This document shows, in pieces, positions 29,224 to 58,725 of a DNA stretch of 64,000 nucleotides. The position numbers and the translations under genes are program-made. The first letter of the stretch is position 1; each line of letters begins with the position of its first letter. Origin of the DNA: an uncultured Methanoregulaceae archaeon (GTDB lineage Archaea > Halobacteriota > Methanomicrobia > Methanomicrobiales > Methanospirillaceae); NCBI GenBank assembly GCA_963737635.1, contig CAVTTL010000001.1:768001-832000 (forward strand), given 5' to 3'. The notes below the pieces were generated by a model. The model saw only the letters and a list, made by a program, of their open reading frames with translations, did no database searches and was not told the origin of the DNA.

Positions 29224-30258
29224 TTATTTTCCCGCCGGCCTGCGTCGCAGTGACTGGTCTTCTTCGACGATATAATTGATCACGTTCTCGGCGATATCGG
29301 CGGCGTATTCTCCCGCCCTGCGGATACTCTCGGCAATATAGCTGACCGAGATCGCCGTGACCGTCTCCTGTTTAAAGGCCATATTACTGATATCGCCGCA
29401 GATATGTTCCAAGGCCGCGACCGACTCGATAGTCTTGTGGGCCTCCCGGATATCGGCATTGAAAAACGATATGATACTCTTGTCAAAGATCTGCATGGAT
29501 AGGACACTTGCTTTCTTGAGCGCGTCCACGATCTTTGGGTCGAGATCGGCATCCAGGACCGGCCGGGCATTCTCGGCGATCCGGACGGCATGGTCGCCGA
29601 TTCGTTCGATGATCCTGCCGATCAGGTGATAATACATGGCCATGCCCACCGATACCTCCATCTTCCGGGAGAGAGACGGGTTCTGCATGATCATATTGGT
29701 CTGGCGGGCGATCAGCCAGTTGAGCCGGTCCGAGTCCATATCACGGTTGATCACGTCTGTGGCAAGGGTATGGTTGTGTTTCTCAAGCGCTGCGATCGCA
29801 TCTTCGTGCATGTTCCTCACGATCACAAACATACGCTTGATGGTGTTGTCAAACGGCATCTCGGACGGGTTGAGGAGGTCTTTTATCATGATGAGCGTGT
29901 CGGTCTCTTCGACAACTTCCTGGCCGATAGTCATCTGCGTGAAATCCCGGACGACCGTTCGGACAAACGGCGGAAACCGCTGTTTCGAACTGATCCGGAT
30001 CGTCGTGAAACCCGTGATGTAGGTCCCGATCAGGATCCGGAAGAGAAACGACGGATCGGTGATGTGACCGATGTCGATCTCTTTGACACGCTGGACCGGT
30101 TCCTCCGTGGTTTTCTTCGTGACCAGGAGTGTTCCGTCAGCCTGCGTGATCAGGCCCACCGGATCGTTCTTCTTGATGCGCATCTCCTGGACCCAGTCCT
30201 TGGGTAGCGTTACTACAAATGATGACCCCCCCGTCATCTGTACACGGCGTAATTCCAT
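29224..30258 (-). CDS. phoU: Archaeal phosphate uptake regulator (AbrB-like DNA-binding domain plus PhoU repeats)
   Basis: RRVQMTGGSSFVVTLPKDW; IERIGDHAVRIAE; IRRAGEYAADIAE. Confidence 0.93.
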   Translation of the reverse strand: MELRRVQMTGGSSFVVTLPKDWVQEMRIKKNDPVGLITQADGTLLVTKKTTEEPVQRVKEIDIGHITDPSFLFRILIGTYITGFTTIRISSKQRFPPFVRTVVRDFTQMTIGQEVVEETDTLIMIKDLLNPSEMPFDNTIKRMFVIVRNMHEDAIAALEKHNHTLATDVINRDMDSDRLNWLIARQTNMIMQNPSLSRKMEVSVGMAMYYHLIGRIIERIGDHAVRIAENARPVLDADLDPKIVDALKKASVLSMQIFDKSIISFFNADIREAHKTIESVAALEHICGDISNMAFKQETVTAISVSYIAESIRRAGEYAADIAENVINYIVEEDQSLRRRPAGK

Positions 30259-30422
30259 CTCTGTTTCCCTCCTGATGAATAGAGCAATATGATGAATATG
30301 CTTATCTCTATTTTTTCTCTTCTAGCATATATACCTGTATATTCTATGGCGAAAAACTGTATGTAATCATCGGTTAATATTTGCCTTGAAATCAAAAGCG
30401 GTGAACAGGTGGAGGGGCAGAT

Positions 30423-30927
30423 GTGAAAAACAAAACAGTGATATTTGTCTGCTCGTTTAATTCGGTCAGATCCCCCATCGCAGAAGGGCTTCTCCACCAC
30501 CGGGAAGATGGACCACAGTACACGGTTTGTTCTGCCGGTATAGCACCGATACGGGTACGCCCCTGCGCCGTCACGGTCATGCAGGAGATGAAGATAGATA
30601 TTTCAGGCCATATTCCTGCGTCACTGTACCAGTACCCGGAATACTCATTTTGATTACGTAGTCACGCTCTGCGATAATGTCCGGACAACTGCTCAGGACG
30701 TATTGCAGGGAGGGGACAGGTTTTTTCACCGGAACTTTGTTACCCCCCAGGAGATCGGAAAGACTCACGAAGAAATCCTCCCGGAATACCGGAAACTGCG
30801 GGATGAGATTGGGGTATGGCTCTCCGAGATTTTCCCGATAGAAACCCCGAACCAGGACAATAGTAATGGCGGAAAAATCCCGGATCGCACCATGATCCCG
30901 CTCGCAGTCGGGTTGGGAACATTGTAA
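30423..30927 (+). CDS. arsC: ArsC / low-molecular-weight phosphatase family protein, frameshift in T-run near 30650
   Basis: FVCSFNSVRS P-loop, SAG, then FDYVVTLCD and RDEI in the second frame. Confidence 0.75.
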
Positions 30928-30966
30928 AAGGCGAACAGGAAAAACAAGGATGAAAAGAGCGCGTTT

Positions 30967-32508: not shown

Positions 32509-33411
32509 ATGGCTGCGGAAACGGAGAGTTTTGATAAGTTTTTTGAGATGTACAAGCGTTTCTGCTATATTTTCGGACGTTCTTTCGATCGTAACCCGAG
32601 CCGGGATATCATCAAACTCATCTACCAGGCTGACCTCGAAATGACGCCGGGCATGTTCACGTCCCTGTGGATCGTGACCACCATTCTCGTCGGATTTCTT
32701 ATGATTGTCGTGGCCTCGGTCATCTTCCTGCTTCCCCAAAGCCCGTTTTCCGTACCGGATCCCGCACCCTTTATCCTGCTGTTCGCTTTGATCGGGGCCG
32801 CTGCAATCGCTATCGGCTTTCCTTTTTACCTGCAAAACCAGATCGAGAATAAGAAACGGGATATCGATACCCAGATTCCCTATGCCCTTGCCTTCATGTC
32901 TATCCTTGCCAGTTCCGGCGCAACGCCGCTTGATATTATCAGGAGAATTGCGCGGGAAGAGTACGGGCAGATCTCCAACGAATTCCGCAAAGTGCTTTTC
33001 CGCGTGGATGTGCTGGGGGAGGACGTGGTCACCGCGATGAACGGGTTGGTACAGAATACGCCGTCGGATCTGTTCCGGGATATCTGTATCGATATAACCA
33101 ATATCATCTACGGCGGGGGAGGGCTCAAGACCTACCTTGAGACAAAATCAAAAGAACTCATGGCAATCCGGCGCCAGACTTACAAGGAGTTTGTGGAATC
33201 GCTTGCTGTATTCGGGGAAGGATATCTTGGGGGCGTAGTGATGACGATCACCCTTGCCGTGCTTGGTGTCGTGATCTCCGGTGCATTAGGTATCCAGCTG
33301 GGACCGTTTTCTGCGCATGATTTGTTCAACTATCTGATCTACCTGCTGATCCCGCTCATCAACATTGTCTTCCTGCAGATGCTGGCAGTGAAATATTCGA
33401 CAAATCCCTGA
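32509..33411 (+). CDS. Type II/IV secretion system F-family platform protein (PilC/TadC-like) 1
   Basis: IDTQIPYALAFMSILASSG...YGQISNEF...TPS. Confidence 0.9.
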   Translation: MAAETESFDKFFEMYKRFCYIFGRSFDRNPSRDIIKLIYQADLEMTPGMFTSLWIVTTILVGFLMIVVASVIFLLPQSPFSVPDPAPFILLFALIGAAAIAIGFPFYLQNQIENKKRDIDTQIPYALAFMSILASSGATPLDIIRRIAREEYGQISNEFRKVLFRVDVLGEDVVTAMNGLVQNTPSDLFRDICIDITNIIYGGGGLKTYLETKSKELMAIRRQTYKEFVESLAVFGEGYLGGVVMTITLAVLGVVISGALGIQLGPFSAHDLFNYLIYLLIPLINIVFLQMLAVKYSTNP

Positions 33412-33417: not shown

Positions 33418-34785
33418 ATGCCACCACCTGCCAAGGACACCCCGGTTCACAAAAAGCTCGATGACCTCAACGAGGTTATCGAGCGGATCAAGATCAAGTA
33501 CAACCCGCCACGGGAACTTTTCACCATCGCCATACCAGTGGCGATCGCATTGCTTGTCGTATTGACCGCATTCCTGATGGGCTACACTCTTCATACGACA
33601 GAAAAGCAGCAGGCTGTTACTACAAGTGACAAGGACAAAGCGCTTCAGGCATACCTTGCCCAGATGAATGCCGGAAACGGCAATGCAACCGGGAATGCGA
33701 CTGCCGCGACGCCATCCGCACCTGCGGCACCCACTATGGGGCTCGATGAAGTGATGGTCTTTGCCCTGATAATCGCCATCCTCCCGTACTCTATTGACAT
33801 AACGCTCCAGAAAAGGGCGACCCGCAAAAAAGAAGAGCTCTATACCGAGTTCCTCTTCAAGCTCTCGGAACTCATGAGGGGCGGGCTCGATCCGATAAAG
33901 GCGGTAAAGGAGCTCTCCAAGACAGATCTCGGCGTTCTGACCCCGCATATCCGCATCGCGTCGACGTCGATGACGTTTGGCAAGTCCTTTGAAGAATCGA
34001 TGAAGGCGATGGCCCAATCGCTCCATTCTAACCTGATCACCCGGTATACCCAGCTCGTTGTCCAGGCCTCGTACTCCGGGGGATCGGTGGCCGATCTGAT
34101 CCTCAAGGCATCCGAAGACATGAGGAGCATCATCTCCATTGAACGGGAAAAAGAGGGAAACCTGCACCAGTACGTGATGATCTTCTACTTTGCGCAGGCA
34201 ATTATCGTATTCATCGTTTATATCCTGACCACAAGTCTGCTCCCGTTTGTTACGCAGTCTGGTGCTACCCAGATGTTTGGTAAGTCGGATATCGGGGATA
34301 TCGATTTTGCCCGGGGATTCTTCCACATGATCATCCTCAACTCCATATTCGGAGGACTTATTATCGGAAAGATCAGCGAAGGGGAGGCACGATATGGTCT
34401 CAAGCATGTGGTGGTACTCGTTGCCGTAGGGTACATCGCATCCGCTCTCTTCATTCTGCCTCCACCGGTAGCACAAGCGGGACCAAAAGTCAATATTACG
34501 GTGGTATCAGGAGATCAGCAGGACGGAGTTATATCGCTGCCGCTTCCTAATCCAATCGTCTTCCAACTCACAGATACAACCGGTAATCCAGTGAATAGTA
34601 CGTCTGTTACATTCAGCATAGTGCCAAGTGGTTCGGTGAATCCGGCATCGGACACTTCGGATAAGAACGGACAGGTAGAAACGAAGGTCGTCCTCGGGAC
34701 CGATCCAGGAACGTACTTTGTGACTGCAACAGCAAATGGGGTTTCTGCAAAGGCAACAGTTATCGCAAAATCAGGAGGAGGTTAA
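33418..34785 (+). CDS. T2SS F-family platform protein 2 with a C-terminal Big_1-like Ig domain
   Basis: FLFKLSELMRGGL...GLIIGKISEG...GLKH, then VSGDQQ...TDTTGNPV...VTF...SDKNGQ...VTATANG. Confidence 0.88.
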   Translation: MPPPAKDTPVHKKLDDLNEVIERIKIKYNPPRELFTIAIPVAIALLVVLTAFLMGYTLHTTEKQQAVTTSDKDKALQAYLAQMNAGNGNATGNATAATPSAPAAPTMGLDEVMVFALIIAILPYSIDITLQKRATRKKEELYTEFLFKLSELMRGGLDPIKAVKELSKTDLGVLTPHIRIASTSMTFGKSFEESMKAMAQSLHSNLITRYTQLVVQASYSGGSVADLILKASEDMRSIISIEREKEGNLHQYVMIFYFAQAIIVFIVYILTTSLLPFVTQSGATQMFGKSDIGDIDFARGFFHMIILNSIFGGLIIGKISEGEARYGLKHVVVLVAVGYIASALFILPPPVAQAGPKVNITVVSGDQQDGVISLPLPNPIVFQLTDTTGNPVNSTSVTFSIVPSGSVNPASDTSDKNGQVETKVVLGTDPGTYFVTATANGVSAKATVIAKSGGG

Positions 34786-34788: not shown

Positions 34789-35260
34789 ATGCTGAAAAAT
34801 GCCGTTTGTATTACATTCTTGTCCATGTGTATTCTCGCACTCGTAAGTATTTCTGGCTGCACTACATCTATGCACTCCCAGTCTGAATTCATCGGTGGAA
34901 AACGCTACGGTTGCGTTACCTGATCCTGAAACAGGTCTCCAGATGTGGATAGATGCTATCAATGCCAAAGATATTAATCGTCTATATACTCTTTCGCCCA
35001 ATCAGATCCGAGAACAGGTAACTTTGGAACAATTCACGAAGGATAATTCTGACAATTATCTCCTCAAACCGGGATATATTTTTACCAAATATATAATAAT
35101 TAACGAAACAGTCAATCAAACCACGGCAATCATCGTTGCTGATTTACCGTTACAGGTGCCATCTCAGAATTCCACTCAATTGAAGGTCATTCCTATCAAC
35201 TACAAGTTTTTCCTGATCTTTGAAGATGGGGAATGGAAAATTTGGAATGTTCCTTTTTAA
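34789..35260 (+). CDS. Lipoprotein with NTF2-like domain, frameshift near ~34870
   Basis: MLKNAVCITFLSMCILALVSISGC signal in one frame; WIDAIN...FEDGEWKI in the next. Confidence 0.6.
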
Positions 35261-35317: not shown

Positions 35318-35869
35318 TCATGCACTCTGTACGAAATGATGGCAGGTCGGGCAGACCCAACCAACCGGTATCATCTCCCCGTTTTTTGTCGTAGAAAATG
35401 TCTGGATCATCGGAGTATTGCACGAACAGATCGGCCTGTTTGCTGCTGCCTGTCGCTCCATAAACTGGGCGATCCTGCGCTTCTTGTATAGTGCACTTTC
35501 AATGGCGGCAAAGAGCTCCCGGGTATTGATCGGCTTGACCAGGTACCCACTCGACTCAGTCAGGACAACACGACGGATGGTTTCGTCATCGCTGTACGCA
35601 GTGAGGAAAATAATCGGCGTCCCGTACAGTCCTTTAATTTTATGGGCAGCTTCTATCCCGTCCATATCTCCCTGAAGATGGATGTCCATAAGGATCACGT
35701 CCGGGTGCCGTTCTCCGGTAAGGGAAAGCGCTTCCTCGCCGCTCATGGCAATCCCGACTGCTGAGTACCCGATCCGTTTGAGGGTCTCCTCAAGGGTCAT
35801 GGCAACAAGCCCCTCATCTTCCACGATCAGGATTCTTTTTTCCTCAGGGTTTGCAGGACTTTTCATCAT
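35318..35869 (-). CDS. Response regulator receiver with C-terminal Cys cluster
   Basis: ILIVEDE, ILMDIHL, FLTAY, YLVKP; tail CSC...CPTC. Confidence 0.9.
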   Translation of the reverse strand: MMKSPANPEEKRILIVEDEGLVAMTLEETLKRIGYSAVGIAMSGEEALSLTGERHPDVILMDIHLQGDMDGIEAAHKIKGLYGTPIIFLTAYSDDETIRRVVLTESSGYLVKPINTRELFAAIESALYKKRRIAQFMERQAAANRPICSCNTPMIQTFSTTKNGEMIPVGWVCPTCHHFVQSA

Positions 35870-35965: not shown

Positions 35966-37378
35966 ATGAGTGATCAGACCCCTCGGTACTCCTTAATAGT
36001 GGGTGCGGGCAATCCATTTGCGCAGATCCCGGAGGACCCTGGGATCATGCGTTTACTGATCGTCATCATTGCTACCGCTACTATTGGCATAGCCGTTTTC
36101 AGCCTGGTACATGGGATAGCAGATCTTTACCAGTACCTCTTTCTTCTGCCGATAGTCATGACGGCCTATTTCTTTCCCCGGTACGGAATTGCCACATCCG
36201 TGATCATGGGACTCTCCCTGGTTTTACTCAACATTTTGTTTGTGGGTGAAAATCTGCCCGCACTCACGCTTGCGTGCTTCACGTTCGCTGTCTTTTTGGG
36301 GATAGGCGGAATCGTCACAATACTATCAGAGAGTATATCCGGATTAAAAGAACGATACCAGGATATATTTGCCATGTCCGGGGCGGGCATGGTCATCTTT
36401 AATCGGGATACCGGCCGGATTTCTGAAGCCAATCCCAGTTTTCTGGCTCCTTTGGGCTATATGTCAATCGGTTTACCTGCCTTACGCGATCTTTTCGAAT
36501 ACCCGGAACAGTACCGTGATCTGGTTGATGAAATTATTGCAGGCGGAAGAATTACCGATCAGAAATGCATGTTAGTTACCTCCGCGGGAGCGTTGCGCCA
36601 GTTCCAGATTTCAGCACGTTCGTTCTTCGGCCCCTTCATCCTGTGTACGTTCATGGATGTCACCGAACGTAAACAGTATGAGGATACTCTGCGCCAGTCT
36701 CTGACAGAAAAAGAGATCCTGATTAAAGAAGTGCATCACCGGGTAAAGAACAATATGCAGATAATTATGAGCCTTCTTGAGCTCAATGCACTCAAGGCCG
36801 AAAACGAACGTGAACGATCCCAGTATGCAGAAATGCAAGGGAGAGTAATGACAATGGCGCTTATCCATGAAAAGCTCTATCAGTCCCCGGTCGCTGGTTC
36901 CATCAATGCGGAAGAATATTTCTCGGATCTCCTCAAAAATATTGTTTCTGCTTCCGCATCGCCCGGCATACGATGTGTTGTACAGGCACCGGGAATTTTC
37001 CTCGATATAGATAAGGCCATTCCCTGCGGTCTCATTATCAACGAGCTTGCCACAAATTCACTGAAATACGCATTTCGTGAAACGGCCGGATCAGAGATTC
37101 ATCTGACCCTGACTGCCGGCAGCGACGGTCTATGCACCCTAGAATTTTTTGACAACGGAAGGGGTCTTCCTCAGTCGTATGATTTTGCTGCGTCGGAAAC
37201 TCTAGGGATCAGGTTGATCCATATGCTTGTACGACAACTTAAAGGCGCTATCACTATAACAAACTATGATGGCACGCATTTCTGCATACAGTTTCCCCTG
37301 AATCTTCGTGAACAGGAACCGAAAACCTCTGTCGCGACCCGGATCCCGGAACAGACTACCATTTCCCGGTGGGCATAA
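35966..37378 (+). CDS. Membrane PAS histidine kinase (HisKA_2 type)
   Basis: EVHHRVKNNMQII, ALIHEKLY, INELATNSLKYAF, DNGRG. Confidence 0.92.
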   Translation: MSDQTPRYSLIVGAGNPFAQIPEDPGIMRLLIVIIATATIGIAVFSLVHGIADLYQYLFLLPIVMTAYFFPRYGIATSVIMGLSLVLLNILFVGENLPALTLACFTFAVFLGIGGIVTILSESISGLKERYQDIFAMSGAGMVIFNRDTGRISEANPSFLAPLGYMSIGLPALRDLFEYPEQYRDLVDEIIAGGRITDQKCMLVTSAGALRQFQISARSFFGPFILCTFMDVTERKQYEDTLRQSLTEKEILIKEVHHRVKNNMQIIMSLLELNALKAENERERSQYAEMQGRVMTMALIHEKLYQSPVAGSINAEEYFSDLLKNIVSASASPGIRCVVQAPGIFLDIDKAIPCGLIINELATNSLKYAFRETAGSEIHLTLTAGSDGLCTLEFFDNGRGLPQSYDFAASETLGIRLIHMLVRQLKGAITITNYDGTHFCIQFPLNLREQEPKTSVATRIPEQTTISRWA

Positions 37379-37487: not shown

Positions 37488-39269
37488 ATGAAAGTCCGCA
37501 CGCGTACCCGGTTAATTCTTGCTGCCTTGGCTTTTATTTTTTTGATTGTTCTTAGTTTCATCACCCAGTTTATAATCCTCGATTCATTTCGTACGATAGA
37601 AAAACAGCAGATGACGGCAAACGTCCAACGGGTTGTTGCAAATCTCAACGATCAGGAGAACACGGTAGCAGCCAGCTGCAAGGATTGGGCAGACCGCGAC
37701 GACACCTATAATTTTGCAGAAAGAGCCAATTCACCGGGGAATACCGGCACATTCAACCAGCCGCTCCTGCTCGGGACGCTTGATGTCGACTATCTTCTCA
37801 TATACAATACTTCGGGAGATCTGATATTTTCCGAAGGGGCCATAACAGACAACGGGACGTCGGAAGTCGTTCCCGCCCAACTTGAGAATATCATCAGCGA
37901 CAGTATTATTCCACCGGGTGTACCTGGCGGGGTATCGGGACGACACGGGGTCTCGTTCCTCAATGGCGAACCGGTTATTCTTGCCGGTTGTGCCATCCGG
38001 GGGAGTCAGACGGAGCCTTCAGAGGGCACACTGGTCATGGTGCGGGTTCTTAACAGCCAGAGAATGGCAGACATGGAAAGTGTTCTCCAGATTCCGGACT
38101 TTACCTTTGGACCCTCTTCCACGGGTTCCGGTGTCGGCGTATTCAGCACCACAGACATACAAAAAATGAAGAAAGGCGAAATTATCAGCCAGCCAGTCAA
38201 CGACAGCCAGATGGGAGGAACGGCAATGATCACGGGCATCGAGGATAAGCCAACCTTCCTGATGCTGCAGGTGTTCACGGATCGTACAGTCTATGGCGAA
38301 GTACAGTCATCGATCCTGATAGTTGCGGCTTCGATCATCATCCTGAGCGCCTTTTTTATCTTGGCGATCCAATTTTTACTACAACGGTTTGTCCTGGGGC
38401 CGCTCAGCTCCCTTGACAATGATATAAAAATCATCGGTGAATCCGGCGATCTTTCCCGTCGTATCCCGGCCAAAGGGGACGAGGAGATTGTATCTGTTTC
38501 CCAAGCCCTGAACCAGATGCTTTCCGATCTTGAAGAAAAAAGGGCTGAACTTTCCGCTGCCCGCAGTGAAGTTGCCCAGCGTAACCGTGAACTCGAGGAA
38601 CTTAACCGGAAGGCGAACCTGTACCTCGATATTTACCTCGATGTAATCACGTACGAAATACTCAATGCAATCATGGGACTGCGAGGGTACGCCGATTATC
38701 TCAATGAGACTGCCCAGGAAAATGAAAAGCAGTTCCTCAAAAAGATCGTCGATCTTGCCCAGAAGAGCAACAACGTGATCCGCAATATCGAAACAATAAG
38801 CCGCATTTATAAGATGCAGCCCGGTGTCGTTCCCATCAACCTTGAAAGTATCATAAAAAAGGAAATGGATGTCCGCCAGAATATCCATATTACTCTTGAA
38901 GGATGCGACCGTATAGTATGCGCTAATGATATGCTCGGCGTCGTTTTCGATAACCTGTTCTCAAATAGTCTCAAGTTCGGCGGCCCGAAAGTGTCCATCG
39001 ATGTTTCCGCCCGGGACGCCGGCGATGGGATGCTTGAAATATCGGTTGCTGACAATGGTCCGGGAATTTCCGATGAGATAAAACCGGGGATATTTGACCG
39101 GTTCGCCAAAGATACAAAAACCCGAAGCAGTTATGGCCTCGGGCTCCATATCGTCAAGATGCTGGTGGAAGGATATGGCGGCCGGGTATGGGCCGATGAT
39201 CGGGTCCTGAAAGATGCTTCGTCCGGTGTCACGATACGGTTTACGCTCCGCTTGGCCAAAATAACCTAA
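37488..39269 (+). CDS. CHASE4-HAMP sensor histidine kinase-like protein, H-box His replaced by Tyr
   Basis: DWADRDDTY (CHASE4), HAMP (GDEEI...LNQML), ITYEILN, NLFSNSLKF, DNGPGI, GLGL. Confidence 0.85.
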   Translation: MKVRTRTRLILAALAFIFLIVLSFITQFIILDSFRTIEKQQMTANVQRVVANLNDQENTVAASCKDWADRDDTYNFAERANSPGNTGTFNQPLLLGTLDVDYLLIYNTSGDLIFSEGAITDNGTSEVVPAQLENIISDSIIPPGVPGGVSGRHGVSFLNGEPVILAGCAIRGSQTEPSEGTLVMVRVLNSQRMADMESVLQIPDFTFGPSSTGSGVGVFSTTDIQKMKKGEIISQPVNDSQMGGTAMITGIEDKPTFLMLQVFTDRTVYGEVQSSILIVAASIIILSAFFILAIQFLLQRFVLGPLSSLDNDIKIIGESGDLSRRIPAKGDEEIVSVSQALNQMLSDLEEKRAELSAARSEVAQRNRELEELNRKANLYLDIYLDVITYEILNAIMGLRGYADYLNETAQENEKQFLKKIVDLAQKSNNVIRNIETISRIYKMQPGVVPINLESIIKKEMDVRQNIHITLEGCDRIVCANDMLGVVFDNLFSNSLKFGGPKVSIDVSARDAGDGMLEISVADNGPGISDEIKPGIFDRFAKDTKTRSSYGLGLHIVKMLVEGYGGRVWADDRVLKDASSGVTIRFTLRLAKIT

Positions 39270-46672: not shown

Positions 46673-46688
46673 AGTATACAACTTCTAA

Positions 46689-46703: not shown

Positions 46704-46706
46704 ACA

Positions 46707-50347: not shown

Positions 50348-50564
50348 CTGAAAGAGGCGAAGAACGGGAGCGGTCACATAGAACTCTATATTCTCAATTC
50401 AAAAAATATATTTTAACGGGCTACGTAATGATTTGGTGATTACCGGGTTTTTCAAAAGAACCTCATTATACAAACGGAGTTACCGCATGGCATACGAGGG
50501 ACGGCATAGTGCGCAGGAAACGGGTAGAGTGCCGTGTGCGACGGTCAGCTTTTGAGGATCCATC

Positions 50565-52586
50565 ATGAAAATGAGAATCCCCCGCGTCAGGAAGCAGATT
50601 CGTATCCCACTTGTCATAGGAGCGATCCTCATCCTGCTCGCACTCGGGATGTATTTTCACATTCTGCCAAGTATCGGTAGTCTGGCGCATCTTTTCGAAC
50701 CCAAAATTGCCGTAAATCCGGTCCGATCGCTGTCGGATGAAGATGCCTCACTCAGCCCAGCTCTTGCGAAACCCCTTATCGCTGACATTCTCGCCTCACC
50801 CACATACCAGTCCAATCCGCTTTCCGTACAATTCTTCGATATGAGCCAAGGCAACCCGGATACCTGGCAGTGGGATTTCGGGGATAATACAAGCTCGACC
50901 CTCCAAAACCCGGTTCATACGTACACCAGCGCCGGGATCTATAATGCCACGCTGACCATTTCCCGGGCAGATGGCGCCCAGAGGACGATAAGCGCAAACG
51001 ATGTACTGGATACCCGGCAGGGCGCCGAAATTCCCGTGCTGATCGATACCCTCCGGGACGGAATCATAAAGAAAGGTTCATTTTTATCCCTTGTATCAAC
51101 AGACAATAACTCATCTGTTACCGTGAATGGTAAACAAACTCCGCTGCCTGCAGGATCGCTTGTAAAGATCCGGGCCGACTCGGACACCACCGGGACCCTG
51201 ACCCTTCGCAACAGCAACATCCTGAGCTGCAGTCTTGCTGATGCCACGCTTTTTGTGAACGGAGCCCAGGCAGCTACTGGCAGTTTCGGGAATTGTTTCA
51301 TTCCATCAATCCAGAGTTACCATACAAACCTGAGCTTCGCAATCGAACCAACAATCGGGGAAGTCCGCCAGATCCTTGTCAACGGCAGCAAAATCCTTGC
51401 CGGGCCGGACAACTCGTACATCGTCGTCTCTGATGATTCACAAAATCCCAGAGACGACCTGACCGCTGTTGCGCTTCCCGGATATTATGAAGGAAGTGCA
51501 TCCCGGTACTCCATTTCACCTGCCTTGATTGCCGGTTTCGACGCCACAACCCCCACCGAAGGTGATGCCCCGCTTAACGTATCATTTATAGACCGCTCAG
51601 CCGGCGCTCCGGATTCATGGTCATGGGATTTCGGTGACGGAATCACTTCCCAGAAACAGAATCCTGTTCACCTCTATGGATCCCCAGGCACCTATGATGT
51701 CACCCTGACTGTGAAAACCGCGGACCAGGTTGACACGGCCACCCTCCAGGACCCGATCATCGTCACACCGCCCCGGGTCGTTGCTAACTTTTCAGCACGA
51801 CCAATCACAGGTAGAGCGCCTCTGACCGTCAGGTTTACCGATCAATCCACCGGATTCCCGACATCATGGAACTGGACCTTCCAGGAAACGTCAAACAACC
51901 AGTCCTTCATGAACAATGGCACCACCGTTTATGACACTACAACTGACCAGAATCCTCTAGAAACCTTCACTGATCCTGGCATCTATGATGTCTGGCTTAC
52001 GGTCAACAACATCTATGGCAGCAGCGATTTGATCAAGCCCGGGTACATCGTCGTCACCGAGCCTTACAACATTACCATCAACGATATTCTGATCAGGACC
52101 GGAAAACCCGGGGATCTCGAAGCGAATTCAAGCGTACAATTTATCGTCAGTAATACACCTGCAGCCATAACGATCAATGGCACGTACTATCAGCTGCCCA
52201 AAGGCGCAATCGTCCAGATCGTGGCAAACAGCGACCAGCAGGGCGACATTACTATCGACAGCAACAGGATCCTCAAATTTGATTTCCCGGATATGAATGT
52301 CTACGTGAACGGCGATCTGCTGGATACCGGCAGTATCGATAGCATCTATGTTCCCTATATGGCGCAGTTCCAGACTGGCCTTACTTATTACTTCTCGCCA
52401 AATTCCGCCCAGACATTCGAGACCATTAATGGTCAGCAGTACCTCGCTGATCTGGACAATGCCTGGATCAGGATCTACAACCTCGGCATCAACGAACAGG
52501 GCACGCTCTCCCTGATCTCGGGGGTAAACTCAACCTACCTCGAAGGAGCAGACAACCAGACGGTCCAGGACTGGATCCTCCAGTGA
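50565..52586 (+). CDS. Membrane-anchored protein with three PKD domains and two copies of an unknown beta domain
   Basis: WQWDFGD, WSWDFGDG, WNWTF and NP.H.Y...G.Y motifs; N-terminal TM. Confidence 0.88.
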   Translation: MKMRIPRVRKQIRIPLVIGAILILLALGMYFHILPSIGSLAHLFEPKIAVNPVRSLSDEDASLSPALAKPLIADILASPTYQSNPLSVQFFDMSQGNPDTWQWDFGDNTSSTLQNPVHTYTSAGIYNATLTISRADGAQRTISANDVLDTRQGAEIPVLIDTLRDGIIKKGSFLSLVSTDNNSSVTVNGKQTPLPAGSLVKIRADSDTTGTLTLRNSNILSCSLADATLFVNGAQAATGSFGNCFIPSIQSYHTNLSFAIEPTIGEVRQILVNGSKILAGPDNSYIVVSDDSQNPRDDLTAVALPGYYEGSASRYSISPALIAGFDATTPTEGDAPLNVSFIDRSAGAPDSWSWDFGDGITSQKQNPVHLYGSPGTYDVTLTVKTADQVDTATLQDPIIVTPPRVVANFSARPITGRAPLTVRFTDQSTGFPTSWNWTFQETSNNQSFMNNGTTVYDTTTDQNPLETFTDPGIYDVWLTVNNIYGSSDLIKPGYIVVTEPYNITINDILIRTGKPGDLEANSSVQFIVSNTPAAITINGTYYQLPKGAIVQIVANSDQQGDITIDSNRILKFDFPDMNVYVNGDLLDTGSIDSIYVPYMAQFQTGLTYYFSPNSAQTFETINGQQYLADLDNAWIRIYNLGINEQGTLSLISGVNSTYLEGADNQTVQDWILQ

Positions 52587-52755
52587 TGGAATATTTCCCT
52601 ATTATGTAAAAAGGTTGTAAAAGCATAAATTGAAACGACAGGCCTCGTTGAGAGCCGTACGTGACTGCCGGACCTTCCTGAAATAGCAAAACCAAATGTA
52701 TTGCAGAGAACCCTGATTACATCATCATCGGAAACCGGCTTATGATGTGGCAACC
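52535..52755 (-). pseudogene. hicA: HicA toxin, truncated/degenerate
   Basis: PVS...VIRVLCNTFGFAISGRSGSHVRL; lacks the downstream VP.H and GTL..I region. Confidence 0.65.
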
Positions 52756-52951
52756 GATGACACCTCAAAGGTGGTCAGGATTGCATGTTTCTTTTTTGTC
52801 TGGGGAACTCTTCCAGGTACAGCTCGGTCGCTTCTTGGAGGTTATTGACCGCTTCTTCCACGGTTTTTCCCTGACTGGCCGGACCTACCTCGGGGCATTC
52901 TGCCACATAGATATCATCTTCTTTGTGGAGTACGGCAGTAAAAACCGACAT
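52740..52951 (-). CDS. hicB: HicB family antitoxin (short type), frameshift in A-run near 52795; absent from the ORF track
   Basis: MSVFTAVLHKEDDIYVAECPEVGPASQGKTVEEAVNNLQEATELYLEEF, then ILTTFEV in the shifted frame. Confidence 0.8.
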
Positions 52952-53209
52952 AATTTCACGCCTGTTTCATTGGGTTGTCTTATCCTAAAATCTTTATTGA
53001 GGTAGGAACACTTCAGGAAACCTCCACCAGTGCTGTTGCGTTAACGGGACTTAACGAAAATGATATCGCCGTAATCCATCAATGTTGACTATTTAAAAGT
53101 CCCGACAACGCAACAGAGATGCTAAACATGCTTTTTATACTCTGATGGCTATCCGGCAGACACATTTTCGATCCGGGTTAGTGCTGCATCCAACTGATTT
53201 TTCAGAGCG

Positions 53210-53845
53210 TCACTGTCGCTGTTGCAGGAGGCTCGCCGTTGCCGTGATATTGGAAAGCGCTGCATCGCCGTCATCAAGAGATGACAATGCCTGGGTCTTT
53301 GCGTCCATTGCTGCCGCACGCAGGGAGTCGTCCCGGTAATCGGGATCGGGCTCGGATAGATACTCGCTCAGATCCCGGTTATAATCCACGAAGTGCTGCT
53401 GGGCGTTCCCCATATCTATGGAATAGATTTTCATTTCCTGGGTGAGCAGGCCGATGAGCCCCGGGGTCTCCTGATCCGTCCCGAATGAAAGGGCCGAAGT
53501 ACCCGACGAAAACGAATCCGTCGCGGATCCCAGTGCCGTACCGGCGCTGCCCCACTGGCTGATGGCCTGCCCATCGGCAGCCACATCCCCCTGTAGCGTC
53601 CCGGCATCGGAAGAAGCCCCGGCGGTATCGATATTATAGGCAGAAAGGGTGTTCCCTATCTGGGTAAGTGAAGTGCGTACCTGGCTTGCATAGGTACCCT
53701 GCTGATCGGCCCATGCATTATAATCCTGAATGACGACCGTCGTATTGTGGGTATCACCCATCCGTGGGGTGGTGCAACCGGCAACAAGAAGGAAACACCC
53801 AGCCATAAAGAGGAGAATGAAAAATACCGCGGATCGTTCCATCAT
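53210..53845 (-). CDS. Helical lipoprotein, hypothetical
   Basis: LVAGC lipobox; amphipathic helices. Confidence 0.7.
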   Translation of the reverse strand: MMERSAVFFILLFMAGCFLLVAGCTTPRMGDTHNTTVVIQDYNAWADQQGTYASQVRTSLTQIGNTLSAYNIDTAGASSDAGTLQGDVAADGQAISQWGSAGTALGSATDSFSSGTSALSFGTDQETPGLIGLLTQEMKIYSIDMGNAQQHFVDYNRDLSEYLSEPDPDYRDDSLRAAAMDAKTQALSSLDDGDAALSNITATASLLQQRQ

Positions 53846-53984: not shown

Positions 53985-55296
53985 ATGTATAAACTGGGCG
54001 CTCTAGCATGTCTCTTCGTCGCGGTACTCGTTGGGGCATGCGGGTGCTCCGGCACAAGTCCCGGAGCAAACCAGACACCCGGATCCACCCCTACGCTCCC
54101 GGCAAACTATGTCGCCGGGGAAAGTACACCCTCTCTGTCAAGTGCTACGATAGCACCTACACCAACGCCTCCGAATGCGACAGCAAATATCTACGGGGCA
54201 CAGGTCAATACGACGCTGACGGAAGTGACGATCGCCTGCACGGGGCAATCATGTACCTATGGCATAGCTTCCAATACGACGCCAACTACCATTATGCCCC
54301 CCCTAACCGCTATTGCAGCAAATATATCCATGATATATACCAGGCAAAATCCGCTGCTGGTTGGCGTCCAGTTCACCGATAGTTCGGTAAACACCCCCCC
54401 ATACTCATGGATGTGGAGCTGGAAGCCAAGCGCGAACCTGAGTTCCGAGAGCGATCCCAGTATCGTCCTTGTGTTCAGCCAGTACGGGACATATCAGGTT
54501 ACCCGTACTGTTTCAAACACACTGGGGACTTCAAGTTCTTCAACAGATATCTCGGTCTGCCCGCTTGTAGCATCGTTTACCACGAACCAAACGAGCGGCC
54601 CAGTACCCCTCACCGTCAGGTTTGCCGATACATCGACCGATCAACCTGTCTCCTGGTCATGGAACTTTGGTGACGGGAGGTACGTCCACGCTCCAGAACC
54701 CGGTGCACACCTACACGACTTCAGGGACGTATACCGTGAGGCTGGATGCAACAAATTCCCTCGGCTCCTGCTGGAACACCACCGGGATCTCGGTCTCCTC
54801 ACTCTCTGCATCGTTTAGCGCAAACCAGACGAGCGGTTTGGCGCCCCTTGCCGTCCAGTTTACTGACTCTTCGACCGACCAGCCTACTAAGTGGTCCTGG
54901 GACTTCGGCGACGGGAGTATATCCAGTCTCCAGAACCCGGCACATACCTACACATCAGCAGGAGTGTATACGGTAAATCTTAAAGCCACCAACGGGTTTG
55001 ATGGGTGGATAAGTGCCACGCCCGATACGATCACGGCCTATTCCCTTCCCACCGTGGACTTTAAGGCAAGCCCATTAACGGGGCCGTCGGGAACATCGGT
55101 ACTCTTTAATGACCAGAGCACCGGATTTCCTGCACCCACGTCATTTTACTGGGACTTTGGAGATGGTTTCACCAGTACCTACCAGAATCCATCGCACCAG
55201 TATGCCAGTTCCGGCGCGTATACAATCAGTCATTCCGCAACAAATTCGCAAGGGACCGTGTGGTTGAACAGAACAGGGTATATCTCCATATCATGA
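53985..55296 (+). CDS. PKD-repeat lipoprotein (four PKD-like domains), frameshift near ~54680
   Basis: ACGC lipobox, Thr/Pro linker, WSWNFGDG, WSWDFGDG, FYWDFGDG; the stop overlaps the ATPase start. Confidence 0.85.
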
Positions 55297-57428
55297 CTTC
55301 CAGACCATTAACCGGCAGGATTTCATCTCTTTTCGGCACTAAAGAGCCTGACGGGACTGATACCGCTACAGAGCAATCTCCATTGGTCCTGACCGAAGAA
55401 GAACCCGTATCCGGGGAGTACGAGGTCAAAAAATCCGCGATATCACACTATCCTGACGGCAGGCACCGGGTTTCGCGCGTCCAGAAATTCATCCTGTACT
55501 TTATTGAGCCGGAACTGGAACCGCAAACCGGCGCCAAACCGCCAGTGCCTGCCACCGAACGTACACAGAAAACTCCTGCACCTCCGATAAAAGACCGGAT
55601 CCGGTTACAGCTGGCGTCCTTGCGATCGTCTCTCCTGAAAATAACCCTGTTTTTTGTCGAACCCGGATATGATAACGTGGAGATCCTCACGTTACCTGCG
55701 CCGCTAAAAGAGACCCTTAAAACTCACCTCCTCAAGCCGGAACCTACAGATAATACAATCCAGGCAGTAGTTGTACCGTCTGCACCCCCTTCTTTTGTGC
55801 AGAAGATCCGATCGGTGTTTGCATCACCGGAACAGAAGGATATCCAGACGCTCGATTTTGATCCCGGTGTTTTAGCTGATCCTTCCCTCGAGGGATCGCT
55901 GCGGGATGTCAATATCACGTACCAGATCGATCCTCCCTACCAGTACGTCCATATCGAGTACAGCAAAAAAGACGGGGCCCTTACCTATGAGGTGGTAGAA
56001 CCACAACTCTCCGAAGATGAGAAAATCGCTCTTGATATTATCGAGCGGGCTTTTGAGAAACTGGTGAGTACCAATCTTGAGGTTATCGAGGGAGAACGGC
56101 GGAGTGAATATCTCCGGGAACGGTTTTACTCCCTGGTCAATATATTCGGGCTCAAACTGACGGAATACCAGAAAGAGCGGATGTTTTTCACGCTCAAACG
56201 ACAGTATCTGGGGTACAGCCGGATCGATACCCTGATGAAGGACAAATATATCGAAGATATCAGCTGCAACGGATCCGACATCCTCCTGTACGTCCAGCAT
56301 CGTATCTACGGGTCGATCCGGACCAATGTGAGGTTCGGTGAAGTCGAACTCAACAACTTTGTCCTGAAACTTGCGCAGGTCGGCGGCAGGCATATCTCAC
56401 TGCTCCAGCCTATCCGCGATGTCTCGCTCCCGGACGGGAGCCGTGGAAACCTTACGCTGGGCGGCGAGGTCACCAGAAAAGGTTCGACGTTTACCATCCG
56501 TAAATTCCGAGCCAACCCAATCTCACCCATCGAGATGATGGATTACCATTCGGTCGATGCAATGGAGCTCGCGTACCTGTGGATCCTGATGGAATACAAG
56601 CGGTCAATCCTTGTCTCCGGGGGAACAGCGACCGGTAAGACTACGTTCCTCAACGTCCTCTGCAGTTTCATCCCTCCGGAGTACAAGATTGTCTCCATCG
56701 AAGACACCGCAGAACTTAACCTGATGCATCCCAACTGGATCCAGTCCATCACCCGGGCAGGATTTGGCAGCTCCAGTGGGGGAGAGAATGTATCCGGGGT
56801 GAGCGGCGTGTCCTCGAAAAGCCCGGGGGATATATCGCTCTACGATCTGCTTGTCGCAGCGCTGCGACAGCGACCTGAGTTCATCATCGTGGGTGAAGTG
56901 CGGGGCAGTGAAGCGTTTACCCTCTTCCAGGCAATTGCCGTCGGGCACGCAGCCCTTGGCACCATCCACGCCGGCTCCATGGACGAACTTCTTGCCCGTG
57001 TAGAGTCAAACCCCATGAACGTTCCCAGAAGCCTCTTTTCCAACCTCGATGTGGTACTCTTCCCTATGCATATCAAGAAAGGCGAGCGCAGCATGCGCCG
57101 GCTGGCAAATATCGTCGAAATGCTGGAGTCTGACCGGGACACGGGGGACCTTATCACCAATACCGTCTTCAAATGGGCCCCTGACATCGATGAGTTCCAG
57201 TTCCAGGGCCGCAGCTTCCTTTTTGACAAGATCCGGGACACCCACGGGGTAAATAAGGATATTCTCAACCAGGAACTCAAGGACCGGACGGCATTCCTTC
57301 TCGGCCTGCAGAGGGCAGGCGTACGGGAATACAACGCGGTGACCGAACAGATCCGGGCGTATTACCGGGACAAACCGGCGGTCATGAAGCAGATCCTTGC
57401 GGTTCAGGCAGAAGGACTAGAAGCGTAA
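55293..57428 (+). CDS. pilB: Type II/IV secretion ATPase (archaeal PilB/ArlI-like) with long N-terminal extension
   Basis: IEDISCNG, FTIRKF, GGTATGKTT, IEDTAEL, RQRPEFIIVGEVRG, GH...TIHA. Confidence 0.92.
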   Translation: MTSRPLTGRISSLFGTKEPDGTDTATEQSPLVLTEEEPVSGEYEVKKSAISHYPDGRHRVSRVQKFILYFIEPELEPQTGAKPPVPATERTQKTPAPPIKDRIRLQLASLRSSLLKITLFFVEPGYDNVEILTLPAPLKETLKTHLLKPEPTDNTIQAVVVPSAPPSFVQKIRSVFASPEQKDIQTLDFDPGVLADPSLEGSLRDVNITYQIDPPYQYVHIEYSKKDGALTYEVVEPQLSEDEKIALDIIERAFEKLVSTNLEVIEGERRSEYLRERFYSLVNIFGLKLTEYQKERMFFTLKRQYLGYSRIDTLMKDKYIEDISCNGSDILLYVQHRIYGSIRTNVRFGEVELNNFVLKLAQVGGRHISLLQPIRDVSLPDGSRGNLTLGGEVTRKGSTFTIRKFRANPISPIEMMDYHSVDAMELAYLWILMEYKRSILVSGGTATGKTTFLNVLCSFIPPEYKIVSIEDTAELNLMHPNWIQSITRAGFGSSSGGENVSGVSGVSSKSPGDISLYDLLVAALRQRPEFIIVGEVRGSEAFTLFQAIAVGHAALGTIHAGSMDELLARVESNPMNVPRSLFSNLDVVLFPMHIKKGERSMRRLANIVEMLESDRDTGDLITNTVFKWAPDIDEFQFQGRSFLFDKIRDTHGVNKDILNQELKDRTAFLLGLQRAGVREYNAVTEQIRAYYRDKPAVMKQILAVQAEGLEA

Positions 57429-57501
57429 CGGGAAGTTCTTTCCAATCGTCTCTGAGATCACCTGTGCCAGCTCAGTCACGATTTCGGGGCAAATCAGGAG
57501 G

Positions 57502-58725
57502 TTATCTGCAGATATTGTTTGCAAAAGACCTGCTTCTCGTGAGTTGCCCGGAACTTATGGTTGCCGTCCCGTTACCACAGATCAGATAGGTAACATTTCC
57601 AAAGGCATCCGTTTGGCCATTGGAATTTGAAGGAACCAGTGTCCATGTGAAAGGTAAGTTATCTGCGTATTGATTGATGCTATAGGATACTGGTTGATCC
57701 GTTAGGGGAGTATTGCTTATGGCAGTTATGGTCACATTTAATTGATTGCCGGTCTGGTTCCAATCCAGATTAATGGACGATGGCGGGACAAACTGTTGAT
57801 CTTTTGGGATGAGTTGATAAGGAGAGGTTGCAACCATCCCATTGCTGTCGGTTACCGTCAAGTTGGCACAGAAGGGCCCACTTATAAATGGGGAGAAATG
57901 AGCTATTTCATTGCTGAAATAGGGAGGAACACTTACCGTACTTAGATCATTGACATCCGAACAGTTCCCGATTGGATCAATCTGACCGTTTGTCATAGTG
58001 TAGGTAGCATTCATGAGTGTCCATTTCCAGCTGACAATGGTCGCATTTCCTGATGAGGACTGTGACCCGTCCAGCACTATATTATCCCGCGGAACTGAGC
58101 CAAGCGTTGTTGTTTCAGTGTTATAGACAATCACAGGGGTCGGTAATTTGTAGGTCTGCTCAAAAATGTTCGTGAGCGAAGTTAAGACCTTGATATCAAT
58201 CTGGTCGCCGGTTCCAATAGGAGGTGCCGCGGGGGTCAGATCGATCGTGATTTTTGTACTTTTCCCTGCCGGAATTGCAAATTGTGACGAATTGACATAA
58301 GAACCAAGTGATGAGGAAGAATTACACCATCCTCCAGGTGATCCCAAGGCACTGCAATTCCCTGAAGAATAGGAGCCCGATAACGAAGAAAATGAAAAAG
58401 GAAGCAGATACTGGTTATTAATGGCGATGCCTACGATATTGGTATCCTGAGTGTTGAGATTCATCAGATCGAACGAGATGGAACTCCAGTTTTGTGGCGG
58501 GACGCCTATCTGGTTCCAGTAACTTTCATTATTGGTCAGACTCACCCCGGAGATCACAATATCCTCGTCATGGACTGCCTGCATCTGTGATTGCCGGGTC
58601 ATCTCGGCTTTCTGCATCTGCGAAACCATGAGCGCAAGAGCGGCTGCGGCGGTCACAGTTATCAGGATGAGAAGAAGGGTTCCGATAATAACAGAAACAC
58701 CCTTATCGTCACGCGGCCGGGTCAT
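57502..58725 (-). CDS. Minor pilin / archaellin-like protein with PKD-like and Ig-like domains
   Basis: DKG/VSVIIGTLLLILITVTAAAAL; LDGSQS...IVSWKW...LTVTDSNG; TDAFGNVT. Confidence 0.85.
   Translation of the reverse strand: MTRPRDDKGVSVIIGTLLLILITVTAAAALALMVSQMQKAEMTRQSQMQAVHDEDIVISGVSLTNNESYWNQIGVPPQNWSSISFDLMNLNTQDTNIVGIAINNQYLLPFSFSSLSGSYSSGNCSALGSPGGWCNSSSSLGSYVNSSQFAIPAGKSTKITIDLTPAAPPIGTGDQIDIKVLTSLTNIFEQTYKLPTPVIVYNTETTTLGSVPRDNIVLDGSQSSSGNATIVSWKWTLMNATYTMTNGQIDPIGNCSDVNDLSTVSVPPYFSNEIAHFSPFISGPFCANLTVTDSNGMVATSPYQLIPKDQQFVPPSSINLDWNQTGNQLNVTITAISNTPLTDQPVSYSINQYADNLPFTWTLVPSNSNGQTDAFGNVTYLICGNGTATISSGQLTRSRSFANNICR

Follow-up and report, generated by a model that had tools for sequence, protein, structure and literature searches.

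Positions 29224-58725 of the DNA analysed here, a stretch of 64,000 nucleotides from an uncultured Methanoregulaceae archaeon (the window), carry genes for the binding protein and permeases of a Pst-type ATP-binding cassette (ABC) transporter among the genes of a type IV filament machine. The window corresponds to G000:C1:768001-832000 in a genome of 2.46 Mb with a GC content of 0.516, and its near protein relatives in a protein collection carry the name Methanoregula. The gene map was drawn from Pfam and NCBIfam scans of the window open reading frames (ORFs). An original prediction for this region had listed a PhoU protein, a pair of T2SSF (PilC/TadC-type) genes, a response regulator (RR) with two histidine kinases (HK), a KaiC/ArlH-like protein, a pilin-PstS heading pstC and pstA, two PKD proteins, a PilB ATPase and a pilin, and the scans recovered all of these at or near the positions proposed. 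No pstB gene was detected in the scans between 29224 and 58725, and no small pilin genes were seen there in the ORF list or the family scans.

Binding protein, permeases and filament genes of the cluster

The PstS-like gene (45541-46672, + strand) does combine a pilin-like start with a PstS domain, as the predicted fusion implied, but its reading frame as written in the window is broken near 45761. The pilin-like start lies in the frame of 45448-45870 and the PstS domain in the frame of 45569-46672, separated by a 1-nt frameshift that is an assembly error (see below). The PBP_like_2 model (cut-off 27) was matched at 31 bits by the window PstS and at 42.4 bits by P0003, an intact PstS of 376 aa from the protein collection that is 99% identical to the window protein.

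In the frame 45448-45870, the N-terminus of the window PstS reads MYANMKHMNNDMAVSPIVATLVLIVVAVIGAVAVG. Cluster PstS begins ..MAVSPIVATLVLIVV.. and the genome's own pilins begin alike, ..AVSPVVGVMLMLVV..; the residues NNDMA followed by VSPIVATLVLIVVAVIGAVAVG parallel these pilins and have, at the level of sequence only, what defines a class III signal. In an alignment of 25 members of the PstS family, the common start M-A-V-S-P-I-V-A-T-L-V-L-I-V-V-A-V-I-G-A-V-A-V-G-T-I-M-G-T-F-S is followed by a Ser/Ala/Gln-rich linker and then by the PstS domain, and six pilins encoded at 2749-7139 of the window start ..A-V-S-P-V-V-G-V-M-L-M-L-V-V-T-I-I-I-A-A-V-V. The Pilin_N model matched 15 of the 25 PstS sequences, in every case under its cut-off (best E 0.0018), and a profile of the PstS family matched 8fk7, a solved archaeal flagellin, at its N-terminal helix with E 3.4e-4. 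When the 12,125 ORFs of the genome were ranked with a narrow profile of the six window pilin N-termini, which was used for rank and not for significance, the PstS ORF came ninth, after eight pilins and before the pilin of the cluster itself. The same genome has a housekeeping PstS, whose gene is part of a canonical pstSCAB-phoU operon and whose signal is of the lipobox type (..VAGC..), so the pilin-like start is specific to the PstS copy that is linked to type IV pilus (T4P) genes.

Downstream of this start the protein has the fold of PstS. Its AlphaFold2 (AF2) model had a mean pLDDT of 80, with residues 1-57 below 50, and the top Foldseek matches of the model were all phosphate-binding proteins. 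The motifs GSTT, GGGSG, DIGA and R..SGT (REAGSGT) were invariant or nearly so among the 25 sequences and aligned with the phosphate receptor 1twy; residues in these motifs presumably contact phosphate as those of E. coli PstS do. The PstS-like matches L007, L010, L011, L013 and L014 in the same archaeal order were placed outside the system, having no A/G-VS-P/Q motif; four of these lie beside RR/HK genes and L007 lies beside a PhoU gene. At the metagenome loci L032, L033-L035 and L026, an extra class-III PstS paralogue was seen that is followed by a response-regulator gene instead of pstC and pstA.

The next two genes encode permeases with BPD_transp_1 domains. As written in the window, pstC (46707-47627, + strand) has an in-frame TGA at 47259-47261, and pstA (47624-50347, + strand; 57.8 bits) falls into three frames, with shifts at 49022, 49515 and 49537. 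Because these breaks prevent the window copies from being scored whole, the orthologues of genome G143 were scored in their place. PstC, 83% identical to the window protein, reached 279.8 with TIGR02138 (cut-off 196.45), and PstA, with 831 aa and 66% identity, reached 235 with TIGR00974 (cut-off 193.45). PstC keeps an EAA-type loop, REGSTALGATQWETIRHLVLP, and PstA keeps one too; such loops dock the nucleotide-binding domains of ABC ATPases. Cluster PstC is 45-93% identical to the cluster copies of other genomes and families, and 36-40% identical to the canonical copy of the same genome. Methanoregulaceae PstA carries a C-terminal extension of ~540-650 residues, which is made up of a Pro-rich linker, additional membrane-spanning segments and an outer domain that is rich in beta structure and matches no Pfam family. 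In G017, PstA is one ORF of 948 aa that spans the window pieces 47624-49384, 49119-49538 and 49631-50347. The extended form was also present at L136:3192-6038 and L101:12055-14550, and the compact clusters, which have no PKD genes, encode a plain PstA of ~300 aa.

No pstB was found in any of the clusters examined, and PilB occupies the place that pstB has in ordinary pst operons. In all 16 compact loci, the start of PilB lay -59 to +408 nt from the stop of pstA, which leaves no room for pstB between them, and the two genes overlapped in 8 of the 16. This overlap or near-abutment suggests that pstA and pilB of the compact loci are on one transcript. The sole PstB above cut-off in the window's genome is encoded at C1:368940-369680, ~445 kb away; likewise, of the 12 genomes with a PilB of this clade, 11 encode a PstB outside the cluster, and in the twelfth a partial copy lies at the edge (the start) of a contig. 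As PstC and PstA retain their EAA-type loops and PstB is encoded elsewhere in the clade genomes, PstB would be expected to act in trans on the PstCA of the cluster.

The remaining core genes include a T2SSE ATPase, T2SSF platform genes and a class III pilin, the set by which archaeal type IV filament loci are recognised, with the peptidase encoded elsewhere in the genome. The PilB-type secretion ATPase (55260-57428, + strand) matched T2SSE at 106.5 bits (cut-off 24.9) and PilB3_C at 24.2 bits. It scored 377 bits with the FlaI model (cut-off 550) and 192.6 with BasE (cut-off 1000), and its closest solved chains were 2oap (355 bits) and FlaI 4ii7. The N-terminal 170-200 residues are of low complexity and show no conservation between the window and G143, and no conserved docking domain was evident there in this comparison. 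The T2SSF genes, TadC1 (32509-33411, + strand; 55.8 bits) and TadC2 (33418-34785, + strand; 51.9 bits; cut-off 25.2 for both), matched positions 5-215 and 298-542, respectively, of the 555 positions of the ArlJ model. Two T2SSF genes are thus present as predicted, but since they match the N-terminal and the C-terminal half of an ArlJ-type platform, they are the halves of one split ArlJ/TadC-type platform and not two platforms. TadC1 is 60-92% identical in the clusters of relatives. TadC2 ends in an Ig-like domain (Big_1, 31.9 bits, under the cut-off of 34.9), an architecture also seen in L117 and L123.

The ArlH/KaiC-like protein of RecA fold (39310-39921, - strand) matched the Pfam KaiC model at 33.2 bits (cut-off 26.6), the ArlH model at 38 bits (cut-off 215) and KaiC chains of the PDB at E ~0.007. 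Its Walker A is degenerate, with EEDTGITKSS in place of the expected GxxGxGK[ST]. The gene was found in the cluster from Methanomicrobiales to Nitrososphaerota. The small multi-pass membrane protein orf147 (40175-40618, + strand), which has no Pfam match, has relatives of 33-72% identity directly upstream of PstS in Methanomicrobiales and Methanosarcina sp. T3. The large pilin (57502-58725, - strand; 407 aa) has a class III N-terminus followed by PKD/Ig-like domains, and scored 30.4 with arch_flag_Nterm (cut-off 20), 21 bits with Pilin_N (cut-off 25.2) and 25 bits with a K319L-like PKD model. Its orthologue in L117 scored 27.8 bits with Pilin_N, over that cut-off, and the pilin gene adjoins PilB in many loci. 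The prepilin peptidase was recognised outside the cluster, as a Peptidase_A24 match of 30 bits (cut-off 26.5) at G000:C1:362197-362373.

The part of the chromosome around the window is rich in type IV filament genes. The six pilin genes at 2749-7139 stand in tandem and have near-identical N-termini and Pilin_N scores of 52-82 bits, and C1:752-762 kb, just upstream of the window, holds more T2SSE/T2SSF loci.

Gene order across archaeal lineages

Loci around relatives of PstS were fetched from metagenome and genome collections and from the genomes G143 and G017, and were searched with the window proteins. The core of the cluster is conserved and consists of the split TadC, the ArlH/KaiC-like protein, the small membrane protein, the class-III PstS, PstC, PstA, PilB and the large pilin. 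In Methanoregulaceae, the order is TadC1-TadC2-(orf121)-ArlH-like(-)-orf147, a variable insert, and then PstS-PstC-PstA(+extension)-PKD-lipoprotein(-)-PKD-PilB-pilin(-). The Methanomicrobiales order is TadC1-TadC2-ArlH-orf147-PstS-C-A-PilB, and compact forms without the PKD genes were found in Methanoculleus (L118; L126, which is M. palmolei DSM 4273), Methanofollis (L119), Methanolinea (L107, L109) and metagenome-assembled genomes (MAGs) of Methanomicrobiaceae (L117, L122). The order PstS-C-A-PilB-TadC1-TadC2-ArlH-pilin was seen in Methanocellaceae, at locus L113 from a MAG of an uncultured Methanocella, and also in Methanomethylovorans (L115) and Methanosarcina sp. T3 (L170).

Related loci were also found in a second phylum. 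In a Nitrososphaerales MAG (L123), the genes are AbrB-PhoU(-), class-III PstS, a 232-aa protein, PilB, TadC1, TadC2, ArlH-like(-) and a large pilin, and PstCA is absent from the locus. The class-III PstS of L123 (448 aa, ..KSKAVSPVVATLVLIVVAIVG..) has the motifs GSTT, DIGAAS and RADNSGT. A Nitrososphaerota MAG (L129) has pstSCAB, a DUF5658-like gene and a class-III PstS, with the same type of PilB 6.4 kb further on. From these loci, the constant partners are therefore the class-III PstS and the set of PilB, TadC, ArlH and pilin.

PstC and PstA followed the class-III PstS in 63 of the 74 loci with at least 2.5 kb of sequence downstream, and of the 45 loci with 9.5 kb or more downstream, 40 had a PilB of the clade at most 11 kb from PstS. 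Among the 42 loci with 9.5 kb or more upstream, 29 contained the TadC pair, most of the misses arising because an insert of the window type pushes TadC past the 10-kb flank.

The same association was recovered when PilB was taken as the starting point. Orthologues of PilB (64-100% identity, 787-1614 bits) were present in 12 of 151 genomes sampled from the order, and a clean gap separated them from the next-best ATPases in these genomes, which were at most 44% identical (424 bits). PstC/PstA lay directly upstream of the clade PilB in all ten genomes with enough contig, and a class-III PstS was confirmed beside them in eight (G000, G143, G017, G051, G062, G121, G129 and G142). In the other two, G049 and G031, the PilB contig begins within pstC, and the class-III PstS of G031 is on another contig (L003). 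The contigs of the remaining two clade genomes, G025 and G061, were only 2.5 and 3.8 kb long. A PilB scan with one genome per species gave 28 clade loci, and PstA was upstream in 21 of the 22 whose upstream sequence reached 1.9 kb or more. The test of synteny that the original prediction had proposed, between pilin-PstS and this clade of PilB/TadC, was thus strongly positive; nor was a pilin-PstS found to be widespread away from this PilB/PilC, with one exception (G059). Since the synteny is conserved across lineages, the gene association is beyond chance, and the genomic link between PstS and the pilus machine is strong.

Gene breaks, neighbouring genes and the PhoU-domain regulator

The window sequence from 43000 to 52000 was compared with Logan contigs of four public DNA runs from four studies (X1, X2, X4 and X5), of which X1 may be the window's own source sample. 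Across the broken genes, the run contigs were letter-identical to the window but for indels, the exception being one divergent X2 contig over pstS. In xth, the runs have an additional G at 43132 (three runs). In pstS, one nucleotide fewer was present at 45761 in X1 and X2, for X2 in the divergent contig, and at 46671, at the end of the gene, again in X1 and X2; site 45761 was covered by these two runs only, as the contigs of X4 and X5 do not reach there. In all four runs, pstC has one nucleotide fewer at 47256 and an additional G after 47261, and pstA has one nucleotide fewer at each of 49022, 49515 and 49537. With the run indels applied, pstA passes from frame 2 to 0, 1 and back to 2 as a single ORF, 47624-50347, which agrees with the 948-aa PstA of G017 and the 831-aa PstA of G143. 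Because the run contigs carry 1-nt indels exactly at the breaks, and because P0003 and the G017 and G143 orthologues of the broken genes are intact, the breaks are consensus errors of the assembly and the genes are intact in nature. The window sequence was left unmended, and intact orthologues were used for scoring and folding.

The divergent X2 contig covers 45415-45810, the region of the PstS signal peptide, with 25 differences and a depth of 78 vs ~10 elsewhere. It may represent a related strain, or a collapse of many genes that share an N-terminal coding sequence. The 90% completeness estimate of the genome and in-frame stops in others of its ABC ATPase genes may share the cause of single-base indels.

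Two further breaks were noted. The second PKD gene (53985-55296, + strand) has PKD and PKD_4 matches in two overlapping frames, 53985-54818 and 54622-55296, and its equivalents in L134 are contiguous in one frame, 18110-19438; the break at ~54620-54820, in a stretch outside the run comparison, is probably another assembly indel. A low-molecular-weight (LMW) phosphotyrosine phosphatase/ArsC-like gene is seemingly cut in two, 30423-30653 (the N-terminal half, LMWPc 39.4 bits) and 30703-30927, and the split near 30650-30700 is probably also an assembly indel. In G143, an intact LMWPc homologue of 183 aa lies inside the canonical pst operon, beside phoU.

Some genes of the region are confined to the Methanoregulaceae form of the cluster. 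The small conserved protein orf121 (34895-35260, + strand), which matched no family in the Pfam and NCBIfam scans, follows TadC2 in G143, G017 and many other loci. The surface protein with three PKD domains (50565-52586, + strand; PKD_4 138 bits) is 47-76% identical at the same position in relatives and absent from the compact clusters, and the lipoprotein-like orf211 (53210-53845, - strand), with an LLVAGC lipobox-like N-terminus and no family match, is kept between both PKD genes in relatives. The variable insert of the window holds the RR/HK genes, namely a response regulator (35318-35869, - strand), a PAS-HisKA_2 kinase (35966-37378) and a CHASE4-HAMP kinase (37488-39269), together with DUF5658 (41141-41611, - strand), orf227, orf111, xth (42945-43762, split as written) and a 366-aa membrane protein; it is absent from loci of the G143 type. 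Together with others, the RR/HK genes, xth and DUF5658 are inserts particular to certain lineages and are missing from the compact clusters, in agreement with the earlier view that the region is not one operon. Of the genes that had been called unrelated, xth was recovered, but hicAB could not be confirmed: 52535-52768 (- strand) scored 17.5 bits with HicA (cut-off 27), and the ORF 52742-53005 had no family match.

At the upstream end of the region, the AbrB/SpoVT-PhoU (AbrB/MazE plus PhoU) regulator (29224-30258, - strand) matched Pfam PhoU at 83.9 bits and MazE_antitoxin/AbrB at 38.5 bits; with TIGR02135 it scored 57.5 bits, under the cut-off of 130. The window sequence 29224-30362, which neighbours TadC1 and includes this gene and ~100 nt upstream, is 97.3% identical at the DNA level to G000:C1:364793-365930, beside the canonical pstSCAB-phoU operon at C1:365963-370344. 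Homologues of AbrB-PhoU adjoin the cluster in G017, L139/L157, L107/L169, L109, L154, L160, L123 and L170. Because the gene is duplicated beside both pst loci and PhoU-type neighbours recur in several lineages, the regulator is probably phosphate-responsive and the cluster probably under phosphate control. The canonical pst operon lies within ~15 kb of another TadC-TadC-PilB locus (G000:C1:350974-355085), whose PilB is 42% identical to that of the window, and the only Peptidase_A24 prepilin peptidase gene of the genome (C1:362161-362814) is also close to it.

Interpretation and comparison with known systems

The cluster is best explained, with a probability of about 0.6, as a phosphate-specific, bindosome-like type IV filament system, a reading that draws on the bindosome precedent in Sulfolobales (PMC13705601). 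Under this explanation, a second, divergent PstS would be made with a signal peptide of class III and not with the housekeeping lipobox. The signal would be cleaved by the prepilin peptidase of the genome, and the freed hydrophobic N-terminal helix would be taken by a dedicated machine composed of PilB, the split TadC, the ArlH-like protein, the small membrane protein and the large PKD pilin. This machine may set PstS, together with the cluster pilin, into a filament or scaffold at the surface or in a pseudo-periplasmic position. PstS would capture its predicted ligand, phosphate, there and pass it to its own PstC/PstA permease, which could be driven by the single PstB from the canonical pst operon. 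The AbrB-PhoU protein encoded beside both pst loci would probably turn the cluster on under phosphate scarcity. A more specific form is put forward tentatively: PstS itself may be a subunit of the type IV filament (major, lateral or tip), so that its own PilB clade and a split TadC would build a 'phosphate-harvesting pilus', which would feed a dedicated PstCA. Such a system would be ancient or widely transferred, occurring in methanogens (Methanomicrobiales, Methanocellales and Methanosarcinales) and in ammonia-oxidising Nitrososphaerota.

Several findings weigh against a filament system of this kind. The N-terminus of PstS scored below every curated cut-off (Pilin_N 17.7 vs 25.2; arch_flag_Nterm 15.8 vs 20), and the PstS ORF reached only E 0.13 with the profile of the six pilins. 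In the AF2 model, a low-confidence Ser/Ala/Gln linker of ~20 residues connects the N-terminal helix with the PstS domain, and the helix, unlike that of true pilins, is not packed onto the globular domain; a tethered binding protein therefore fits the model as well as a filament subunit does. PstS is also far under the NCBIfam PstS cut-offs (TIGR02136 42.6 vs 206.6; TIGR00975 30.2 vs 205), so its ligand could differ. Extra class-III PstS paralogues without PstCA exist (L032-L035), and one MAG (L103/L150) has PstSCA ~34 kb from PilB on the same contig, the sole exception to the 21 of 22 loci given above. In G059 a class-III PstS is present and a clade PilB was not found. Furthermore, many of the loci come from related genomes and some are duplicates across collections (L030=L031, L047~L048, L068=L114, L037=L103), so the counts overstate independence.

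The tether-like linker of the AF2 model favours the main rival, in which the locus is a phosphate-starvation island of separate, co-regulated modules: a second, high-affinity Pst permease whose PstS is tethered to the membrane by its N-terminal helix, cleaved or not, and an adhesion pilus (PilB, TadC and PKD pilin) directed, for example, at particles or minerals, whose machine does not handle PstS. The cluster pilin and the Methanoregulaceae PKD proteins do resemble adhesins, the hidden Markov model support for the class III signal is sub-threshold, and the neighbouring AbrB-PhoU is compatible with a shared regulon. We nevertheless regard separate modules as doubtful, though deserving of serious attention, since the lipobox on the housekeeping PstS makes the pilin-like start a particular feature of the T4P-linked copy, class-III PstS stays with PilB/TadC in the Nitrososphaerota form even though PstCA is missing from the locus, 8 of the 16 compact loci have overlapping pstA and pilB genes, and the PilB clade occurs essentially only beside Pst genes. 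The low scores of PstS with the equivalog models would instead suit a pilus link that serves another oxyanion or a phosphorylated compound, such as phosphite, arsenate or an organophosphate, as would a G017 paralogue with ATASG in place of GGGSG and the nearby LMW-phosphatase/ArsC-like gene (30423-30653). Transport of such a substrate appears improbable, because the four phosphate-site motifs are conserved across the PstS family, PstC/PstA pass phosphate-specific equivalog models and PhoU-type regulators are recurrent neighbours.

The location of PilB in the pstB position, often overlapping pstA, and the finding of pstB in none of the clusters examined raise a further explanation. Bacterial PstSCAB-PhoU has an established signalling role, and PstSCA could similarly serve the pilus motor as a coupling partner or as a sensor of phosphate, and not act as an importer. 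PilB would replace PstB and would power PstCA or else be gated by it, and the assembly of pili would in that case report on, or respond to, the phosphate outside the cell. This was considered very unlikely. PstC and PstA keep their EAA-type loops, 11 of the 12 clade genomes have a PstB gene at another site and the twelfth a partial copy, the low-complexity N-terminal 170-200 residues of PilB are unconserved and without an evident docking domain, and the Nitrososphaerota locus L123 is without PstCA. PilB as a replacement for PstB was judged unlikely on the first three of these grounds. Finally, the interruption of pstS, pstC, pstA, xth and one PKD gene as written could be taken to mean that the window copy is a decaying pseudogene cluster and a functionless relic. 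This was rejected, with almost no probability left to it, as it is contradicted by the run indels that restore the frames (four runs for pstC and pstA, three for xth at 43132, two for pstS), by the intact P0003 and by the intact orthologues in G017 and G143.

A comparison with the Bas bindosome of Saccharolobus solfataricus bears on the preferred explanation, a phosphate-specific filament system. According to two sources, the Bas system comprises BasEF and BasABC and serves sugar-binding proteins whose signal peptides are of class III (PMC13705601, PMC4858521). The cluster shares with it an ABC binding protein with a pilin-type signal peptide, an implicated ATPase and membrane pair of the PilB/TadC type, and the same proposed logic, in which a pilus machine puts the binding protein at the cell surface (PMC13705601, PMC4858521). 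Bas, however, handles sugars, whereas the predicted substrate of the cluster is phosphate. The Bas binding proteins of Sulfolobales sit with distant ABC operons, whereas here the pilus-machine cluster itself contains PstS and its two permease genes, frequently in the order pstS-pstC-pstA-pilB. BasABC are three small pilins, and the cluster instead has one large PKD pilin, the ArlH-like protein and the small membrane protein; its hosts are methanogens and Nitrososphaerota, that of Bas Saccharolobus. The cluster PilB is not a BasE orthologue (192.6 vs a cut-off of 1000), and TadC1 matches BasF weakly (26.8 vs 1300). With these scores far under the cut-offs and BasABC absent, the cluster does not belong to Bas; judged by sequence, its machine parts are homologous to those of Bas but of a different clade.

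With canonical PstSCAB-PhoU, the cluster has in common the PstC/PstA equivalogs, the PstS fold and motifs and a nearby PhoU-domain regulator. It differs in having PilB in the place of pstB and a class III PstS, whereas the canonical system has PstB and a lipobox PstS. With the archaellum and archaeal T4P (FlaI/ArlI, ArlJ, ArlH; afGspE 2oap), it shares T2SSE, T2SSF, an ArlH/KaiC-like partner and a class III pilin, and the gene for its prepilin peptidase likewise lies at another place in the genome. It is not an archaellum: the scores with FlaI (377 vs 550), ArlJ (74.5 vs 550) and ArlH (38 vs 215) are under the cut-offs, archaellin and ArlCDEFG genes are absent from the cluster, and the platform is split and ABC-transporter genes are embedded.

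A survey of archaea counted 4397 binding proteins that have signals of class III, and reported them 'also in several methanobacterial members' (PMC13705601); it proposed that type IV filament (T4F) machines insert such proteins, giving 'functionalised T4F for substrate scavenging' (PLoS Genet 2026, PMC13705601; bioRxiv 10.64898/2026.04.22.720090). These proteins were reported to co-localise with ABC transporters and not with T4F clusters, a specific link to a T4F locus needing validation (PMC13705601). The terms phosphate, Pst, PBP, Methanoregula and KaiC are absent from the main text of that paper, whose supplements may list PBP_like_2 among the top Pfam families. Makarova et al. 2016 described KaiC-family genes co-transcribed with VirB11/TadC in Methanomicrobia (PMC4858521), and the terms phosphate, ABC, transport and permease are absent from the main text of that work. 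In Pseudomonas aeruginosa, PstS was found on extracellular appendages under phosphate limitation (PMC2242829, PMC3949141); this bacterial case is an analogy only, and neither a pilin-type PstS signal nor a genetic link to a type IV pilus machine is known to us from it. As far as the main text of PMC13705601 goes, the general idea of functionalised filaments has already been proposed, and the phosphate-specific cluster with its embedded permease and binding protein is a new variant. No description of the cluster was found in literature searches directed at a link between PstS or phosphate and type IV pili or class III signals, nor in the main texts of PMC4858521 and PMC13705601, though supplements (arCOG neighbourhood tables, S9 Fig) may list its genes.

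To our knowledge, the only bindosome studied so far is the sugar system of Sulfolobales. The cluster provides, by gene order, the link to a filament locus that the 2026 survey of class III binding proteins calls missing (PMC13705601, main text), as the binding protein, the permease and a dedicated clade of pilus motor travel together across archaeal orders and two phyla. Cultured strains have the cluster, which makes the idea directly testable; it lies within NZ_CP195120.1:4654146-4675096 in Methanosarcina sp. T3 and within CP137641.1:843785-869351 in Methanoculleus palmolei DSM 4273. If it is true, the capture of an inorganic ion would be added to the roles of type IV filaments, and the occurrence of two types of PstS in some archaea would be explained. 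It would also bear on phosphorus (P) limitation in P-poor peat and soil, for methane producers as well as for nitrifiers, and, if PstS is itself a filament subunit, the filament would set the P acquisition of these organisms in peat, soil and sediments.

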